A stretch of 64,000 nt of DNA, from the NCBI GenBank assembly GCA_965212505.1, contig OZ243123.1:4944313-5008312 (forward strand). Reading direction: 5' to 3'. The notes below the pieces were generated by a model. That model was not told the origin of the DNA. It was given only the letters and a program-made list of their open reading frames with translations, and made no database searches. The DNA is from Candidatus Multivoradales bacterium (GTDB taxonomy: Bacteria; Acidobacteriota; Thermoanaerobaculia; Multivoradales; JAHEKO01). Of the stretch, positions 40,123 through 47,127 are shown piece by piece (the stretch's first letter is position 1; each line of letters opens with the position of its first letter). Position numbers and translations under genes: made by a program.

Positions 40123-40339
40123 GCGCCGCCAGGCACCAGGACGCCGCTAGCTGGCAAACGCGTTCGAATCCAGCTTGGGACACCAATGTCGCTGGAGGGG
40201 CGTGCGAGGTCTGCGAACTCTTCGACTGTGGTCGTCTAACCTTCTAGCAGTTGCGCGCGTCCCCCAGGCGGGAATGACTCGCGTGCCAACGACCTTCCGC
40301 CAGCAGGCGCAGAGCGTCTCAGGTAGAGAGGATGGGACT

Positions 40340-41284
40340 ATGGCAGCCGCGAAGACGCCACGTATCTGGTTTCGAGTGAAGGGGGCGTTCGAACAGGGAC
40401 TGGATGCGTCTGCTGTCCTCGGCGGAGAGTGCTGCCTGTTCGAGACGGAGACGGCTCGAGGAGTCGAGTGCTCGTGGAACGGAGAGCGACCCGCTTCGCT
40501 CAAATGTCCCTGCATGAGCGAACTGAGAGCGCTCGCCGTGCTTTGCTCAAGGGTGTACGGGAAGGCCGAGGCAAAGCAGATCGTTGCTCCCGAAGGATGG
40601 CAGCCTCTGCCGCTTCCGGAACTCAGTGCGAAACGTCGACGCCGGTGGACTCTTCCCGGACTGCATGCGGAACTCTGGTATCGAACACACCCTGGAGAAC
40701 TTGTCAGGGCTGTGCTCGTGTTCCGCGGCACAACCGGCTCCTGGGACTGGTTTGCGAACCTGCGGTGGTTCCGGTTCGTCACGCGGTTCTTCGTCTATGA
40801 CCACTATCACCAGACGAGAGATCTCATCAAGCCAGCGCTCGCATTGCTGGACGAGACTTTCGCGGGCAGGAAGCTCTTTGTCGAGGCTGCCGGTCACTCT
40901 CTAGGAGGAGGACTCGCCCAATACGCAGCGACGTCCTCTCCTCGAATTCGAACAGCGTACGCCTTCCATTCCTCGCCGGTAACTGGCTTCTTCGGAGTAC
41001 CAAAGCGAGAGCGCGACGAAAACGTGAAGGGGCTGACCACGTTTCGCGTCCATCAGAAAGGTGAGATCCTCGAGGCGGCGAGGCTCCTGCTTCGCCGCTT
41101 TGTCTTTGAAGGCATCCTCAGACCGTGGCGACCGAAGAACGTAGACCCGTGCGTGGCCGTTCTACGTGTCGATATTCCGATGAAGAAGGGTCCGATCGCT
41201 CGGCACGATATCGGTGTGTTCGCAGAGGCACTGAGCGCAGTCCCGAGGGTATCTCCAGAGCAGGAACCGGGGGACAGTTCTTAA
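40340..41284 (+). CDS. Lipase class 3 family alpha/beta-hydrolase, no signal peptide, in a lower-GC segment
   Basis: Trimmed to ATG 40340. VLVFRGTTGSWDWFANL and nucleophile elbow AAGHSLGGGLAQYAA (GxSxG) typical of Lipase_3. Cys-rich N-terminal 70 aa. Confidence 0.55.
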   Translation: MAAAKTPRIWFRVKGAFEQGLDASAVLGGECCLFETETARGVECSWNGERPASLKCPCMSELRALAVLCSRVYGKAEAKQIVAPEGWQPLPLPELSAKRRRRWTLPGLHAELWYRTHPGELVRAVLVFRGTTGSWDWFANLRWFRFVTRFFVYDHYHQTRDLIKPALALLDETFAGRKLFVEAAGHSLGGGLAQYAATSSPRIRTAYAFHSSPVTGFFGVPKRERDENVKGLTTFRVHQKGEILEAARLLLRRFVFEGILRPWRPKNVDPCVAVLRVDIPMKKGPIARHDIGVFAEALSAVPRVSPEQEPGDSS

Positions 41285-41329: not shown

Positions 41330-42604
41330 CTAAGGAGTCACCGTCGGAGCCGGGTTCCGGTGCGCAACAACGCCGTTCTTGACTACCACCCGCACCAGGT
41401 TCACCCCGTAGTGGTAGGCGAGATGTAGCAGGTTGGGCGCGTCGAGGATCAGAAGGTCAGCGCGCTTGCCCTCTTCGACCGAGCCGATCGAGTCGCCCAT
41501 GCCGAGTGCGCAGGCGGCGTTGAGCGTCGCTCCGGTCAGCGCCTCTTCGATCGTCAGCCCGAGCTCGAAGACCGCGAGCACAAAGACCATGGGCATCGAC
41601 TCGGTGAACGACGAGCCCGGGTTGCAGTCGGTGGCCAGCGCGATTGGAACGCCGGCGTCGATCATGCGGCGGGCCGGGGCGTAGGTGTGCTTCATGAGGA
41701 AGAAGCTGGTGCCGGGGAGGAGGGTTGCGACCACTCCGCTGCCGGCGAGCGCCTCGATGCCGGCCTCCGAGATGGCGATGAGGTGGTCGGCGGAGAGCGC
41801 GCCGAGCTCGGCAGCCAGGCGAGCGCCGCCCGAGTCGACAAACTCGTCGGCGTGAAGCCGGGGCAGCATGCCGTGCTCGCGGGCTGCGACGAGCACACGC
41901 CTCGACTCGTCGACGGTGAAGACGCCGTGCTCACAGAAGACGTCCGAGAAGCGCGCCAGCTTCGATTCGGCCACGGCCGGCACGATCTCTTGGCAGACCA
42001 GGTCGATGTAGCGATCTCGGTCGTCGCGATACTCGGGTGGAATCTCGTGCGCGGCCATCAAGGTGGGCACGAGGTCGACGGGGTGTGCGTCGGACGCTGT
42101 GCGAATCGCGCGTAGCTGCTTGAGCTCGTCGTCGGTGGAGAGTCCGTAGCCGCTCTTGGCTTCGGCGGTGGTGGTGCCGGAGGTGAGCATCCAGTCGAGG
42201 CGCTTCGCGACCTGATCGTTCAGCTCACCCTCGGATGCCTCGCGGGTCGAGCGGACGGTCGAGAGGATGCCACCGCCCTCGGCGGCGATCTCCATATAGC
42301 TCTTGCCGGCGAGTCTCTGAGAGAACTCGTGCTCGCGACTTCCGGCCCACGGAAGGTGAGTGTGCGGGTCGACGAAGCCGGGCACCACGGTGCCGCCGTC
42401 GGCATCGAGTCGTGCGGCGCCCTCGAGCTCTCCGAAACGCTCGCGGCGCTCCTCGGGAGATCCCACGAATGCGATCTTGCCGTCTCGGCAGAGAACTTCG
42501 GGGCGCTCGATTCGGCGTACGCGCCCCTGCTCCGGTCCGCGAAGAGGTCCGGGGCCTGTCGGTGTCGCGACTTCGGCGACGTTGTGAATCAGAAGGTCGC
42601 TCAC
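41330..42604 (-). CDS. hutI: Imidazolonepropionase
   Basis: GTG start. Characteristic HutI sequence (GFVDPHTHLPWAGSREHEF…, …LHADEF…, …ALATDCNPGSS…). Confidence 0.8.
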   Translation of the reverse strand: MSDLLIHNVAEVATPTGPGPLRGPEQGRVRRIERPEVLCRDGKIAFVGSPEERRERFGELEGAARLDADGGTVVPGFVDPHTHLPWAGSREHEFSQRLAGKSYMEIAAEGGGILSTVRSTREASEGELNDQVAKRLDWMLTSGTTTAEAKSGYGLSTDDELKQLRAIRTASDAHPVDLVPTLMAAHEIPPEYRDDRDRYIDLVCQEIVPAVAESKLARFSDVFCEHGVFTVDESRRVLVAAREHGMLPRLHADEFVDSGGARLAAELGALSADHLIAISEAGIEALAGSGVVATLLPGTSFFLMKHTYAPARRMIDAGVPIALATDCNPGSSFTESMPMVFVLAVFELGLTIEEALTGATLNAACALGMGDSIGSVEEGKRADLLILDAPNLLHLAYHYGVNLVRVVVKNGVVAHRNPAPTVTP

Positions 42605-42669: not shown

Positions 42670-43335
42670 CTAGCCGCCCAGACCGACGCGTTCTCTCGCG
42701 AGACTACGAACTTCGCCAAAGAGCCAGCTCTCTACTTCTGCCCACGAAGGTCCGTCGACGAGCTGCGGCATCGGATCGCGCTCGACCAGAGAAAGGTCCG
42801 CCAACCCCTTGAGGGCTTGGAGCTGGAAGTCGCGAACGTGGCCGAACTTGTCTTCCGATCGATCGAGCACTTCTGCGATCTGGACGTTGCGGCAGAGGAG
42901 GTAGAGGTCGACAAAATCGCGACGGGTGCCGCGGCTGATGATGGCGCCCAGCTTCATCAGTGCCAGGTCGATCTCCGAGGCGACCGCCAAACCGTCGGCG
43001 CTCTCGTGGGGCTCGATCGAGGGGTAGGGGTAGTAGAAGAGTCGGAGGCCGACGCCGCTGCCGAGTCTGGCGAAGAGGTAGCCGTCGCGCGCGGTCTCGA
43101 CGCGGCTCGTTTCGTCCATCTCGAGTAGGTCGCCGAGCAGGTCACGGCGGTCGGCGCTCGCAAGACGATTGGTCGAGCTCATCAGGTCGAGGCCGCGCAC
43201 CACCCGGTGTCCGCGGTAGAGAGCCAACGCCGCTGAGCCGGCGAGATAGAAGTCGTCGGCCCACGAGCGGTTCGCCAGGCCGCGTAGCGCTTCGGCCGTC
43301 TCGTCGGTCAGGGTTCCTGGCAGCTGGATCGTCAC
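42670..43335 (-). CDS. AbiEii/DUF1814-like nucleotidyltransferase-fold protein
   Basis: Trimmed to GTG 43335, in a GTGA overlap with the upstream small ORF. N-terminal DFYLAGSAALALYRGHRVVRGLDL (compare LKGGTAL…R.SxDxD) and C-terminal RRDFVDLYLLC (compare RDlYDlyyll). Second Asp of DxD not conserved. Confidence 0.45.
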   Translation of the reverse strand: MTIQLPGTLTDETAEALRGLANRSWADDFYLAGSAALALYRGHRVVRGLDLMSSTNRLASADRRDLLGDLLEMDETSRVETARDGYLFARLGSGVGLRLFYYPYPSIEPHESADGLAVASEIDLALMKLGAIISRGTRRDFVDLYLLCRNVQIAEVLDRSEDKFGHVRDFQLQALKGLADLSLVERDPMPQLVDGPSWAEVESWLFGEVRSLARERVGLGG

Positions 43336-43607
43336 AGCAGCCAGAGCTCCTGCGAGGTTTCGCTGCGAGGCGAGAGCGGCACGTTCAGCACCAAGCTCCA
43401 GAAAGCTCGGCTGCGGTCGGAAAGGCGCCGAGCGCCTCGGCTCTCGAGCCACTCCGCAAGGCGGCTCTCCGAAACCTGCTCGGTCAGCCACCCGAGGTCG
43501 TGTCGATCGCCGTCCTCGAGGAGTCGCTCGAGGAGCTCGTTGTCGCTTGCGTCGAGTTCGGGCTCCGCGCCGGGGAAGAGGCGCCGGGTACCGGTCGGGA
43601 GCGTCAC
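43332..43607 (-). CDS. Hypothetical 91-aa protein translationally coupled between yggT and the AbiEii-like gene
   Basis: GTG 43607 overlaps the yggT stop (GTGA). Its own stop overlaps the downstream GTG (GTGA). The longer track ORF 43332..43787 is rejected because it overlaps yggT in another frame. Confidence 0.4.
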   Translation of the reverse strand: MTLPTGTRRLFPGAEPELDASDNELLERLLEDGDRHDLGWLTEQVSESRLAEWLESRGARRLSDRSRAFWSLVLNVPLSPRSETSQELWLL

Positions 43608-43852
43608 CAGCTGAGCCGAATGAGAACGTACTTGGCGATCTGGATCAGCACGATCGCCAGGATGGGAGAGATGTCGATGTTGCCGACGCCGCCCGGGGAG
43701 AGCACCTGGCGCAGCGGTCGGAGTACCGGCTCGGTCGCCGCGTGAAGGAAGCGAACGATCGGGTTGCGCAGGTCGTTGGAGACCCACGAGACCAGGGCGC
43801 GCGCGATGATGACCCAGGCGTAGAGGTTCAGCAGGAGGATCAGTAGGCGCAT
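43604..43852 (-). CDS. yggT: YggT-family membrane protein
   Basis: MRLLILLLNLYAWVIIARALVSW…TEPVLRPLRQVLSPGGVGNIDISPILAIVLI matches the YggT consensus. Confidence 0.75.
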   Translation of the reverse strand: MRLLILLLNLYAWVIIARALVSWVSNDLRNPIVRFLHAATEPVLRPLRQVLSPGGVGNIDISPILAIVLIQIAKYVLIRLSW

Positions 43853-43868
43853 CGCGGGCGCGATCCTC

Positions 43869-44549
43869 TCACGAGCGCTCGCCGAAGAGGAGCGTGCCGA
43901 CGCGCACGTGGGTCGCGCCCTCCTCGATGGCGATCTCGAAGTCGCCGCTCATACCCATCGAGAGCCAGCCGGGGAAGTCGGTCCAGTCCGGTTGTTCGCG
44001 AAGCTCGTCGCGCAGCGTTCTGAGTTGGGCGAACCAGCCGCGCGCCGCCGACTCATCCGACTCTCTCGGGGGAATTGCCATCAGTCCGACGATGCGTAGC
44101 GCCTCGAGACCCGCGAGCTCGCGAGCCGCCCCGATCACAGCATCGGGGTCGAAGCCATGTTTGGACGGCTCCCTCCCGAGGTTGACCTCGAGCAGGCCCT
44201 CGAGCGGTTGGTCGCGTTTCGCCGCCTCGCGGTCGAGGACACGTGCAATCTTGAGGCGATCGATGGAGTGGACCACCGAGAAGAGCTCGACCGCCTTCTT
44301 CGCCTTGTTGGATTGGAGTGGGCCGATCAGATGCCATTCGAGCCCGTCGAGATGCTCGCGCTTCGCCTGAGCCTCTTGAACGCGATTCTCACCCACCACT
44401 CGCAGGCCGGCGTCCCGAGCCGCCACGACCTTCTCGATCGGCTGGCGCTTGGCGGCGCCGACGAGGGTGACCTCGTCGGGCGAGCGTCCGGAGCGTCGAC
44501 AGGCTTCGGCGATTCGCGACCGGATGGTGGCGAGGCGCTCCTCGACCAT
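43869..44549 (-). CDS. yggS: YggS-family pyridoxal-phosphate homeostasis protein
   Basis: Trimmed to ATG 44549 (MVEERLATIRSRIAEA…). TLVGAAKRQP (PLP-lysine region). …HLIGPLQSNKAK…. The low-complexity N-terminal extension was rejected. Confidence 0.8.
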   Translation of the reverse strand: MVEERLATIRSRIAEACRRSGRSPDEVTLVGAAKRQPIEKVVAARDAGLRVVGENRVQEAQAKREHLDGLEWHLIGPLQSNKAKKAVELFSVVHSIDRLKIARVLDREAAKRDQPLEGLLEVNLGREPSKHGFDPDAVIGAARELAGLEALRIVGLMAIPPRESDESAARGWFAQLRTLRDELREQPDWTDFPGWLSMGMSGDFEIAIEEGATHVRVGTLLFGERS

Positions 44550-44556
44550 GGCGGAA

Positions 44557-45315
44557 CTAGCCTGCGGCTTCTTCGATGAAGAGGATGCGCTTGCAGCTGT
44601 CGCAGAAGACGATGCTGCCGTTGTTCGCAATCTCGACTACCGACTGCGGCCGCACCCGGTAGTGGCAGACGCTGCACGACCAGATTTGCGGTCCTTTACC
44701 GACGCGCTCGATCTTGCGCACTTCGGCGAGCGCGTTGCCGCCGTGACGCTGGACGACTCGCTCGAAGAGCGACAGGCTCGAGGCGGGGAGGCGCTCGCGC
44801 AGGACCGCGATTCGACCCTTGAGCGCCTCGACCTGCTTGGCGACACCCGGCTTCTCAGCCTCCCACTTCTCGAGCTCGGTCTGGTAGCGGCCGTCGAGCT
44901 CGCTGAAGTTCGACTCGAGCTCTTCGAGGGAGCTCTGTGACTCCTCCTGACGCTCGAGCGCCTCGAGCGCCTTCTCTTCGAGGGCCTTGATGGTGTCCTT
45001 GATGGTGTCCATCTCTTGCAGGAGCGCTCCGTACTCGCGCTGGTTGCGGACCGCGGCGATCTGCTCCTGGTAGGTCTGCAGCTTGAGTTGCGAGTCCTGA
45101 ACATCGGCCTCGGCCTGCCGGCGCTCGCTGGCCGCCTCTTCGATCAAGCCCTTGAGAGCCTCTATCTCGGCCTTGCGGCCCGAGTGCTCCTCGTGGAGCT
45201 CTTGCATCCAGTCGGGAATGCCGTGCAGTCGCTCGTCTGCTTGGCTCAGCTCACTCAGAGCCTTCTGCAGATCGATGACGCTGTCGAGAGGACGCTCCAT
45301 GCTTGTCGTGGTCAA
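44557..45315 (-). CDS. Coiled-coil zinc-ribbon protein (COG1579-like)
   Basis: Long heptad-repeat region followed by CSVCHYRV…FCDSCKRIL zinc ribbon. Confidence 0.65.
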   Translation of the reverse strand: MTTTSMERPLDSVIDLQKALSELSQADERLHGIPDWMQELHEEHSGRKAEIEALKGLIEEAASERRQAEADVQDSQLKLQTYQEQIAAVRNQREYGALLQEMDTIKDTIKALEEKALEALERQEESQSSLEELESNFSELDGRYQTELEKWEAEKPGVAKQVEALKGRIAVLRERLPASSLSLFERVVQRHGGNALAEVRKIERVGKGPQIWSCSVCHYRVRPQSVVEIANNGSIVFCDSCKRILFIEEAAG

Positions 45316-45436: not shown

Positions 45437-45528
45437 CTATGGACCCGTGCCTCCCCGACGGGGGCAGCCAGTATATCCAGTCGCCCCCCGCACGTCACCC
45501 GCGGGAACTGAGTCGGACTACGGGCGAA

Positions 45529-47127
45529 CTACATGCCGAGGAGGTTCTCGTCGCCACCGGCGAGGATGCGGACGAGCGCCTCCTTGAAGTAGTCGTTTTC
45601 GGCGCGAATCTGGGAGTCGATGCGATCTTCGAAGATCTGCCGGGAGCGGTCGATGTCCTCTTGGAGGCGGCGATAGACGTCGCCACCGCGCCGGCCCTGG
45701 TCGACCTGCTCCTCGTTGTAGAGCTTGATCTCCGTCACCAGGAGCCGAGCGAGTCGACGCGCCTCCTCGTGGAGCGCTTCCGAGCCCGCCTCGTTGCCGA
45801 CCTCCTGGGTCGTGAAGGCCCAGCCCGGTCCGCGAACGTCATCTGGTGGCACGACCTGCGTGGAGGAGCCGTCCGCAGCGGGGGCTGGCGCCGCGGGCTC
45901 GGTCGCCGGCTCGGGATCGAGGGCGGGAGTGGGCTCAGCCTCGGCTGGCGCTGCCTCAACCACCGCGGCGGCCTCGGGCTCTGCCGGCTGGTCGAAGGTC
46001 GGCGGGGTCGACATGACGACCGTTTCACTCGCCGGCGGCTCGCTGGGAGTCTCCTCTTCGGCTTCGACACTCAGCTCCGGGAGAGGCTCGACCTCCGGCT
46101 CTGGTTCCGGCTCGGGCTCGACCTCGGGCTCCGGGTCGGCCAGGAGCTCGTCGACGGTCTCTACCGGCTCGGTCACCAGCGGCGCGAGATCTTCGGCCGA
46201 GAGCGTCGGTTCGGAAAGCGCCTCGATCGTCTCGGTGGTCGCCTCCGGTTCCACCGGCGGGTCGAGGTCCGCGATCGGCTCGATGTCGGGGATTTCCGGT
46301 TCCGGCTCGCTCGGCGCCGGCTCGGGCTCGGCGATGACCTCCGGCTCCGGAGTCGCCTCCGGCTCGGGGGCCGGGGGAGCAGGCGGCGGCGTGGGCTCGG
46401 CAGCCGGCGCACTCTCGGTCGCAGCTGCTTCCATGCCCGCGGCTGCCACCGTGAGCGTCGGCGTAGAGCTGCGCTTGCGGACCGGCAGCGTCTCGAGCGT
46501 CTGTCCGGCGACGAAGGTCAGAAGCTGGAGAGCGCTGATATTCAGATGCCCGTCGCCCACGCGGTCGGCGTACAGATAGCCGGCGACGTGATCGCCGAGC
46601 GACAGCGGCAGGAGGGCGCCGACCTGCGGGGCACTGGCGTCGAACTGCGCGCAGAAAGCGGCGCACTCGTCTGCCGAGAGGGCGCGCGTTCCGGCTCCAG
46701 CACGCACCTGGCCCCAAGCCGAGTTGCCGTTCGGTGCCGAGACCGTCGCTCCCTCGAGCGGTTTGCCTGCGTCCTCGAAGCCGAGGCTGCCCCAGCACTT
46801 CTCACCGTCGTCCCGTGTCAGAACAAAGGCGGCGCGCGAGCAGAACCGCCCCGCACCCTCCAGCAAGCCGGCGAGGATGGTCGCCTGTTTGGTCGATCGA
46901 TCGATCCCCGCCGCTGCGAGCTTGAGCTCCTCGAGCGGGTCGAGCTCTCTGCCTGTATCGCCGCCACCGGTACCGGCGGCCTGCGAGCCCCCGGAAGCCA
47001 GACTCTGGACGTCTCGACGCACGCCGTCTATCTGGCTGCTGATCTCAGCTTTCAACGCCTCGGTGACCTTGGCGAGCGGCTCAGCTATCTTGGGGTCCAG
47101 ATCCCGGAATATCTCAGAAGTTGACAT
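45529..47127 (-). CDS. Hypothetical protein with about 200-aa acidic Pro/Glu-rich low-complexity linker
   Basis: ATG 47127 with GGAGGG RBS. Globular N-terminal domain (about 200 aa). PEPEPE/EPEV repeats. Conserved-looking C-terminal about 90 aa (…EIKLYNEEQVDQGRRGGDVYRRLQEDIDRSRQIFEDRI…). The antisense 561-aa ORF is R/G/L-rich junk. Confidence 0.55.
   Translation of the reverse strand: MSTSEIFRDLDPKIAEPLAKVTEALKAEISSQIDGVRRDVQSLASGGSQAAGTGGGDTGRELDPLEELKLAAAGIDRSTKQATILAGLLEGAGRFCSRAAFVLTRDDGEKCWGSLGFEDAGKPLEGATVSAPNGNSAWGQVRAGAGTRALSADECAAFCAQFDASAPQVGALLPLSLGDHVAGYLYADRVGDGHLNISALQLLTFVAGQTLETLPVRKRSSTPTLTVAAAGMEAAATESAPAAEPTPPPAPPAPEPEATPEPEVIAEPEPAPSEPEPEIPDIEPIADLDPPVEPEATTETIEALSEPTLSAEDLAPLVTEPVETVDELLADPEPEVEPEPEPEPEVEPLPELSVEAEEETPSEPPASETVVMSTPPTFDQPAEPEAAAVVEAAPAEAEPTPALDPEPATEPAAPAPAADGSSTQVVPPDDVRGPGWAFTTQEVGNEAGSEALHEEARRLARLLVTEIKLYNEEQVDQGRRGGDVYRRLQEDIDRSRQIFEDRIDSQIRAENDYFKEALVRILAGGDENLLGM

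Follow-up and report, generated by a model that had tools for sequence, protein, structure and literature searches.

A DUF1814-family nucleotidyltransferase and its DUF6922-like partner occupy a fixed place in the yggS operon of Thermoanaerobaculia: a candidate domesticated toxin-type module

A 64,000-nucleotide stretch of the genome of Candidatus Multivoradales bacterium (Acidobacteriota, Thermoanaerobaculia; contig OZ243123.1, positions 4,944,313 to 5,008,312), referred to here as the window, carries two short overlapping genes directly downstream of yggS and yggT. The first encodes a 91-amino acid protein that may be a divergent member of the DUF6922 family. The second encodes a 221-amino acid nucleotidyltransferase (NTase) of the AbiEii/DUF1814 family, whose enzymes (AbiEii, MenT) have been studied as growth-arrest toxins in phage defence and in Mycobacterium tuberculosis. 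We consider it on balance probable that this NTase is a domesticated DUF1814 protein and that the DUF6922-like protein is its binding partner. This estimate applies to the combined reading, including the mechanism proposed below, and the gene-level and evolutionary parts of it are far more secure than the biochemical part.

Results

The gene pair holds one position in an operon of Thermoanaerobaculia

Positions are those of the window, and all genes of the pair and the operon are on the minus strand. The genes and the two junctions on which the following analysis is based are listed in the direction of transcription.

44557-45315 (-), CT398-like coiled-coil and C4 zinc-ribbon gene, 252 amino acids (PF02591, 38.3 bits; PF24481, 37 bits)
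43869-44549 (-), yggS, pyridoxal phosphate (PLP)-binding YggS-family gene, 226 amino acids, ATG at 44549 (TIGR00044, 189.8 bits; PF01168, 77 bits)
43604-43852 (-), yggT, YGGT-family membrane protein gene, 82 amino acids (PF02325, 84.1 bits)
43604-43607 (-), GTGA overlap of the yggT stop codon TGA and the GTG start of the DUF6922-like gene (sequence read directly)
43332-43607 (-), DUF6922-like gene, 91 amino acids, predicted partner or regulator of the NTase (conservation; GC content at third codon positions, GC3; transitive DUF6922 homology)
43332-43335 (-), GTGA overlap of the DUF6922-like stop codon TGA and the GTG start of the NTase gene (sequence read directly)
42670-43335 (-), AbiEii/DUF1814 (MenT-like) nucleotidyltransferase-fold gene, 221 amino acids (PF08843; AlphaFold2 model and Foldseek)
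41330-42604 (-), amidohydrolase-family gene, 424 amino acids, 65 nt past the NTase stop codon (PF01979, 86.9 bits)

A first-pass annotation of the window, made from the sequence alone, had placed the pair behind yggS and yggT and had described both GTGA overlaps. The identity of yggS and yggT was borne out by TIGR00044 (about 190 bits) and PF02325 (about 84 bits), and the coordinates of the open reading frames (ORFs) and the two overlaps were confirmed from the sequence. The yggT stop codon (TGA, 43606-43604) shares bases with the GTG (43607-43605) of the 91-amino acid ORF, and the stop codon of this ORF (43334-43332) shares bases with the GTG of the NTase gene (43335-43333). The successive gaps from the zinc-ribbon gene through yggS, yggT and the DUF6922-like gene to the NTase gene are 7 nt, 16 nt, -4 nt and -4 nt, and the 16-nt spacer between yggS and yggT includes the sequence GAGAGGA.

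To sample synteny, one genome per species was scanned with the motifs of the small protein. The scan retrieved 70 species, essentially all of them labelled Thermoanaerobaculia or Acidobacteriota. The gene order was the same in 70 of the 70, on one strand: zinc-ribbon gene, yggS, yggT and divIVA where present, DUF6922-like gene and NTase gene. Gene calls and Pfam matches in two example loci agreed with this order. The zinc-ribbon gene was found upstream of yggS in 64 orthologous loci, and a DUF6922-like gene was directly upstream of the NTase gene in the window and in 66 orthologous loci. In most of them an amidohydrolase gene followed the NTase gene, with gaps that varied and sometimes with inserted genes. 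The slot before the DUF6922-like gene is occupied in most relatives by divIVA (PF05103); most loci have divIVA only, some have yggT and divIVA, a few have neither, and the closest relatives of the window have yggT only. The sub-lineage of the window (with loci L001, L005 and L006) has yggT where most of loci L003 to L074 have divIVA, and no divIVA homologue was found anywhere in the 64-kb window. The arrangement is that of a YggS–YggT (ylmE–ylmG) cluster, with yggS and yggT adjacent and co-directional and divIVA present in relatives.

The junctions are also shared among the loci. The small gene overlaps its upstream gene, which can be yggT, divIVA or yggS, by 4 nt in about 38 of the 70 loci, and 13 nt are shared between the small gene and the NTase gene in about 50 of the 70 (4 nt in the window). 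These overlaps are not a product of chance. The chained overlaps fit the translational coupling to yggT that had been proposed in the first-pass annotation, although across the loci the coupling would be to whichever gene lies upstream. Two predicted proteins (P0343 and P0387) run from the end of DivIVA or YggS into the DUF6922-like protein, with middle parts that look frameshifted, and in locus L154 (1886-2803) an ORF with an N at the junction joins the DUF6922-like gene to the NTase gene. The overlapping junctions probably gave rise to these apparent fusions during assembly or gene calling.

The pair has diverged in step with its neighbours. Mean pairwise identity was 0.74 for the amidohydrolase, 0.70 for the NTase, 0.65 for YggS, 0.60 for the zinc-ribbon protein and 0.56 for the DUF6922-like protein. 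NTase distances correlated with those of each neighbour with Spearman coefficients of 0.69–0.82, and the coefficients of the housekeeping genes among themselves were no better (0.61–0.77). A simple distance-based (neighbour-joining) tree grouped the NTases of the 66 syntenic loci in one clade with no mobile relative within it, and a scan of viral contigs with the NTase motifs returned no relatives. These measures point to vertical inheritance of the pair under strong purifying selection. Synteny, monophyly and co-divergence together speak for one capture event with vertical transmission thereafter. This is not how mobile modules for defence or addiction behave, and the patchy, mobile distribution typical of toxin–antitoxin (TA) and defence loci was not observed in the syntenic clade.

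The NTase has the DUF1814 fold and an altered active site

The 221-amino acid protein is a member of the AbiEii/DUF1814 family, as the first-pass annotation had suggested. It passed the Pfam model PF08843 (AbiEii) with 30.3 bits against a gathering score of 22.5 (E 5.1e-7), with residues 16-188 aligned to model positions 2-210 of 238. NCBIfam had no model matching the protein, and the PADLOC AbiEii models gave marginal matches (E about 0.02-0.06). The NTase gene itself is not new, since automatic annotation already labels it 'AbiEii/AbiGii toxin family'. The AlphaFold2 model of the protein had a predicted local distance difference test score (pLDDT) of 86 and a predicted template modelling (TM) score of 0.85. 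Its top Foldseek matches in the PDB were JHP933 (4o8s, 4ok0) and MenT1 (8an4, 8an5), with E 2.5e-5 to 1.5e-3, probability 1.00 and TM scores of 0.45-0.59 (about 0.5). Further matches were more distant polymerase-beta-type nucleotidyltransferases, ANT(2'')-Ia (E 4.7e-3, TM 0.46/0.54) and LnuA. Profile and sequence searches of the NTase, and of a relative from Hymenobacter, against PDB chains returned nothing meaningful.

Two motifs were read from the translation.

43180-43239 (-), NTase motif I, G33-S34...R44-V45-V46-R47-G48-L49-D50-L51-M52
42907-42954 (-), NTase motif III, K128-LGAIIS-R135-GT-R138-R139-D140-FV-D143

The motif I pattern hG[GS] followed by D-h-D, with two metal-binding Asp residues, is interrupted in the window, where the first Asp is replaced by Gly48 (codon GGC at 43192-43194). 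The first-pass annotation had named the second Asp as the one replaced; the family alignment puts the motif at D48-L49-D50, and so the missing residue is the first. D50 is invariant (66 of 66 species), and position 48 is Asp in 55 species, Glu in 5, Gly in 5 and Ala in 1. E80, D123 and G33 are invariant in the same 66 species, D84, K128, R135, R139 and D140 are kept in 65 and D143 in 63, the lineages with Gly48 included. The motif III pattern K-x2-A-x3-R-x3-R-D-x2-D is present in the window NTase, and its residues are common to the mobile relatives described below.

In MenT1, the motif I equivalents are R37, T39 and D41-x-D43 (PMC11375011). D41 binds Mg2+, and the D41A substitution abolishes nucleotide binding and transfer (PMC11375011, PMC10435456). 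T39 of MenT1, and likewise S78 of MenT3, is the residue on which the antitoxin makes the toxin phosphorylate itself (PMC11375011, PMC10435456). The antitoxin MenA1, a protein of 68 amino acids, works by binding and inducing this auto-phosphorylation (PMC10435456, PMC11375011), and neutralisation of AbiEii reportedly follows this route too (bioRxiv 10.64898/2026.01.19.700257). The residues of the window NTase were mapped to those of MenT1 by the conserved R-x-S/T-x-D-x-D pattern and the literature instead of a residue-level structural superposition, because the sequence searches of the PDB had given nothing meaningful.

By this mapping, the phospho-acceptor is expected two residues before DxD, at position 46, which is Val in the window. 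Among the 66 species this position is Val in 59, Ala in 3 and Ile, Leu, Pro and Ser in one each, so that Ser/Thr occurs in one species. Mobile, non-syntenic relatives have Ser there in 38 of 38. Their motif I reads LAGGTAL...GHRxSxDLD[FW]FS, the canonical DUF1814 form, and that of the syntenic clade reads LAGSAAL...GHRPVxDLDLMS. As judged from these alignments, the predicted phospho-acceptor is lost across the syntenic clade, and the change from Ser/Thr to Val argues that control of the NTase would be by binding alone. In the window the first metal-binding Asp is Gly, for which reason the NTase of this genome probably has weak or no transferase activity.

The small partner is probably related to DUF6922 proteins

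The 91-amino acid protein of the window has no match of its own in Pfam (PF21956, the DUF6922 family, at E<=1 included) or NCBIfam, and none that is credible in PADLOC. Conservation among its relatives is considerable. The 14 aligned small-protein sequences agree in 25 invariant residues, and the motifs RLLEDGD and RSRAFW are among the conserved stretches. PF21956 matched 13 of 13 orthologues at E<=1 with 14.7-27.8 bits, of which only the best is above the cut-off of 27. A profile built from the small proteins of the clade found 850 cluster representatives at E<=0.001, and it reached, over nearly their full length, proteins that score 38-49 bits on PF21956 (E about 1e-12 to 1e-14). Alignments by hhalign of the clade profile with the single small proteins of Hymenobacter and Aquifex were equivocal, with the expected motifs aligned. 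The PF21956 and profile matches suggest that the 91-amino acid protein is a divergent DUF6922 member, through homology that is transitive only. The first-pass annotation had suggested checking the two proteins against AbiEii and AbiEi_4/COG5340 models; no match to an AbiEi/COG5340 antitoxin was found upstream of the NTase gene in Pfam, NCBIfam or PADLOC, and a divergent DUF6922 protein is the candidate instead.

The AlphaFold2 model of the 91-amino acid protein is a small helical bundle (pLDDT 88) with no significant match among solved (PDB) or viral structures. Profile and fold searches against the PDB, in which MenA1 is present (8an5), likewise gave no significant match. A match of the profile to a homeobox helix (E 0.16) was too weak to count for DNA binding, and a match of the ORF to Cas11e (E 0.005) was judged to be chance.

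Mobile relatives carry the same two genes in varied contexts

A tblastn search of plasmids returned NTase relatives only in Aquifex and Hymenobacter. The nearest were those of Aquifex aeolicus ece1 and a Hymenobacter plasmid, and in both a small gene is directly upstream. The upstream gene of Hymenobacter encodes a canonical DUF6922 protein (64.8 bits) and lies amid Fic/VbhA pairs and conjugative-transposon genes. That of Aquifex encodes an 82-amino acid protein that has no Pfam match but does have the RAFW motif of the DUF6922 clade, and the surroundings of the pair include CopG, AbrB and PIN-type TA genes. The Aquifex gene overlaps the NTase gene by 65 nt (L075, 2311-3115).

A metagenome scan seeded with distant DUF6922 proteins yielded 80 loci, in about 60 of which a related NTase gene starts at or overlaps the end of the DUF6922 gene. 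Neither yggS, yggT, divIVA nor the zinc-ribbon gene was found in any of these 80 non-clade loci (0/80). The contexts vary and include a ResIII helicase gene and transketolase or MFS transporter genes. One pair (L140, 2128-5922) is located between aconitase-family (leuC/D-like) genes and an isopropylmalate-dehydrogenase-like (leuB-like) gene, another housekeeping operon. A different pair (L130, 2893-6614) has a second AbiEii gene, a canonical one (94.6 bits), immediately before it and a fragment of an N6 DNA methylase after it, a setting that looks like a defence island. The varied contexts would fit a patchy, mobile TA-like cassette. The mobile DUF6922 and AbiEii pairs (Hymenobacter NZ_CP141185 and NZ_CP095054; metagenome contigs) consist of the same families in the same two-gene architecture as the window pair, with an NTase identity of 27-37% and E values down to 5e-55 for these NTases with the A3 profile. 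They differ in the Ser-bearing motif GHRxSxDLD[FW]FS and in their changing neighbours, being never beside yggS or divIVA, whereas the window clade has GHRPVxDLDLMS and a single operon.

Discussion

Comparison with known systems

In its working the pair would most resemble MenAT1 (Rv0078B/Rv0078A) of Mycobacterium tuberculosis, which consists of a DUF1814 tRNA nucleotidyltransferase toxin and a short protein antitoxin, as a short partner stands beside a DUF1814 NTase in each. MenT1 is among the best-matching solved structures (8an4, 8an5; E 6e-5 to 1.5e-3, TM about 0.5), both systems have an NTase of about 190-220 amino acids preceded by a partner gene of fewer than 100 codons, and MenT1 shares with the NTase family the R-x-[T/S]-x-D-x-D pattern and the motif III Lys (PMC11375011). 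The two differ in that MenT1 has no detectable sequence similarity to the NTase, the DUF6922-like partner has no match to MenA1, and the window has Val in place of the phospho-acceptor Thr/Ser and Gly in place of the first Asp. Moreover, MenAT1 is a stand-alone TA locus, whereas the window pair is part of a conserved housekeeping operon.

AbiE (AbiEi–AbiEii; Streptococcus agalactiae, Lactococcus), a type IV and now proposed type VII TA system, shares with the pair the Pfam AbiEii family and a bicistronic, overlapping arrangement with the small gene first. Nonetheless, the window pair is not an AbiE system. It has no match to the AbiEi/COG5340 winged-helix antitoxin, its PADLOC AbiEii matches are weak, and it is syntenic and vertically inherited where AbiE is patchy and mobile. 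In addition, its NTase has no Ser for antitoxin-induced auto-phosphorylation (bioRxiv 10.64898/2026.01.19.700257). JHP933 of Helicobacter pylori (4o8s, 4ok0), the top Foldseek match (E 2.5e-5), is similar in length and fold; it is 16-17% identical to the window NTase and is encoded in a mobile plasticity zone, in contrast to the conserved core operon described here.

A proposed mechanism and the points that weigh against it

The DUF6922–DUF1814 module may descend from a widespread mobile TA-like two-gene cassette that would have been captured once by an ancestor of Thermoanaerobaculia and then passed on by vertical descent as a permanent member of the operon. Termination–reinitiation at the overlapping stop and start codons would yield the two proteins in fixed proportion. 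The DUF6922-like protein would bind the NTase and restrain or direct it, by analogy with the action of MenA1 on MenT1. The NTase, in turn, may extend RNAs by nucleotide addition at the 3' end, with tRNA acceptor ends as the likeliest target, and translation capacity would thereby be linked to expression of the division operon. The copy with Gly48 in the window would act mainly through binding. Every characterised member of the DUF1814 family acts, to our knowledge, on RNA 3' ends.

A bolder proposition can be advanced only tentatively. It holds that a mobile DUF1814 toxin and DUF6922 were converted, across the whole class, into an essential, stoichiometrically co-translated component of the yggS–yggT–divIVA operon that has discarded its phospho-switch Ser, the residue through which all characterised members (MenT1, MenT3, AbiEii) are controlled. 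The pair would on this view modify RNA 3' ends in a manner coupled to growth or division, or else be a catalytically silent RNA- or nucleotide-binding regulator, and DUF6922 would be a new, independent class of DUF1814 protein regulator; the same tentative standing applies to these statements jointly.

Several points weigh against a domesticated NTase held by a DUF6922 partner. The RNA substrate is assumed by analogy with MenT and AbiEii, and DUF6922 was mentioned in no paper in our literature search. The binding of the DUF6922-like protein to the NTase is a prediction from gene linkage and co-variation. In sequence, no similarity to the solved DUF1814 proteins can be detected; in structure, the match is moderate (TM about 0.5). 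Eleven of the 66 species have a residue other than Asp at position 48 (Gly or Ala in 6), a pattern ill-suited to an essential catalytic role. Finally, the motifs that retrieved the 70 loci came from this clade, so that 70 of 70 refers to the species that bear the pair.

Alternative explanations

The alternative that survives best, although we consider it unlikely, is that the NTase is a catalytically dead pseudo-enzyme that serves as a structural or regulatory subunit, with DUF6922 as its obligate partner. In division or envelope growth it could be an adaptor that binds RNA or nucleotides and works with DivIVA, YggT or YggS. Such a role is compatible with the tight, conserved linkage to division genes, the absence of the phospho-switch Ser and the replacement of the first DxD Asp by Gly or Ala in 6 of the 66 species, in several separate lineages that include the window, while the rest of the protein remains highly conserved in these lineages. 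The canonical DxD in 55 of the 66 species, with ExD in 5 more, is difficult to reconcile with it, as are the invariance of D50, E80, D123 and G33 and the retention of D84, K128, R135, R139 and D140 in all species but one (65/66). That the residues for metal and phosphate binding are conserved as a complete set speaks for a catalytically active NTase in most lineages.

Slightly less probable again is an ordinary, functional TA or abortive-infection cassette, with an AbiE/MenAT-type growth-arrest toxin and a DUF6922 antitoxin, that was inserted by chance behind yggT and serves addiction or phage defence. The membership of the NTase in the AbiEii family and the bicistronic overlapping architecture with the small gene first are as expected of such a cassette, and relatives occur on plasmids beside TA genes (Fic/VbhA, PIN/AbrB) and elsewhere beside restriction/methylase genes and a second AbiEii gene. 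Against this stand the identical locus in 70 of 70 species with its monophyletic clade, the co-divergence of the pair with its housekeeping neighbours at an NTase identity above that of YggS, the clade-wide loss of the regulatory Ser, the loss of the first catalytic Asp in this genome, the weak PADLOC AbiEii matches (E only about 0.02-0.06) and the lack of relatives on the viral contigs scanned. The first-pass description of a toxin–antitoxin-like pair consequently stands as far as it names an AbiEii NTase with a conserved small partner, but fits poorly with a monophyletic, co-diverging pair that sits in one slot in 70 of 70 loci.

A small-molecule or protein substrate of the NTase in place of RNA, in the manner of ANT-type antibiotic nucleotidyltransferases and with a metabolic role tied to YggS (PLP homeostasis) and the amidohydrolase, is improbable. 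Foldseek does return ANT(2'')-Ia and LnuA as well, and the amidohydrolase gene is a near-constant downstream neighbour. However, the best structural matches are the DUF1814 proteins JHP933 and MenT1, the Lys/Arg cluster of motif III typical of DUF1814 is conserved, and the amidohydrolase gene is 65 nt away here and separated by variable gaps or inserted genes elsewhere.

The remaining alternative, that the 91-amino acid ORF is a chance frame of a GC-rich genome and that the true gene is the 273-amino acid ORF (42670-43491) or the 151-amino acid ORF (43332-43787), can be practically dismissed: both longer ORFs exist mechanically, but the 91-amino acid frame has 25 invariant residues across orthologues and a GC3 of 0.83 (0.80 in the 221-amino acid gene), compared with 0.40 and 0.54 for the parts that the 151- and 273-amino acid ORFs add upstream, the 151-amino acid ORF runs through the Pfam-validated yggT, and the listed NTase homologues never reach into the extension of the 273-amino acid ORF. 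More than 1,300 NTase homologues were found. Among the 120 listed, lengths are 192-244 amino acids, almost all about 221-235, and the matches cover ~70-86% of the 273-amino acid ORF and never its N-terminal extension. Homologues of the 91-amino acid protein are 90-96 amino acids long and 50-62% identical to it. The longer gene models were rejected on homologue lengths, GC3 and the overlap with yggT, in agreement with the first-pass annotation, which had preferred the short gene and regarded ORF 43332-43787 as incompatible with yggT. The two observations on which that annotation had made its reading depend were both checked: an AbiEii match is present and the 91-amino acid frame is conserved. 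The spurious extension at the N terminus also gave a Cas3_C match of 21.4 bits, which does not reach the cut-off of 27 and was judged to be chance. An exact-sequence lookup of the 91- and 221-amino acid proteins of the window returned no identical record.

Other features of the window

One further feature was located upstream of the operon.

45470-45498 (-), sigma-70-like promoter match upstream of the zinc-ribbon gene (9/12 consensus positions)

This match is a possible operon promoter, as judged by consensus; 2 such sites were seen in the region, counted by consensus match only, and 0.3 were expected. It falls between the zinc-ribbon gene and the gene directly upstream of it (45529-47127, minus strand), which encodes a 532-amino acid protein with a Pro/Glu/Ala-rich low-complexity centre and no Pfam family. 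In locus L001 a 438-amino acid protein, likewise of no Pfam family, is encoded directly upstream of the zinc-ribbon gene. On the other side of the operon, a plus-strand ORF of 369 amino acids (40175-41284) contains the serine-hydrolase motif GHSLGG and falls just short of the Pfam class-3 lipase threshold (21 bits; cut-off 22). The NTase gene contains, at 42918-42933 (minus strand), a hairpin with a T-run that resembles a terminator; the 4 such sites in the region are within what chance would give (3.1 +/- 2.0 in shuffled sequences).

Implications

The partnership of DUF6922 with a DUF1814 NTase, the class-wide fixation of the pair beside yggS and yggT or divIVA and the loss of the regulatory Ser were not found described in the literature search. 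In the current view, antitoxin-induced phosphorylation of an active-site Ser/Thr is a common off-switch of DUF1814 enzymes, and this residue is gone in the present lineage. DUF6922, a family without a description in the literature searched, is linked to DUF1814 NTases across many environments. In Thermoanaerobaculia, a gene of toxin type has been fixed over a class-level time span in a cell-division and PLP-homeostasis operon, with a sequence identity above that of YggS. The locus is a natural test case for the taming of a toxin into a housekeeping function, and it could give a lead on the roles of the YggS, YggT and DivIVA neighbourhoods.

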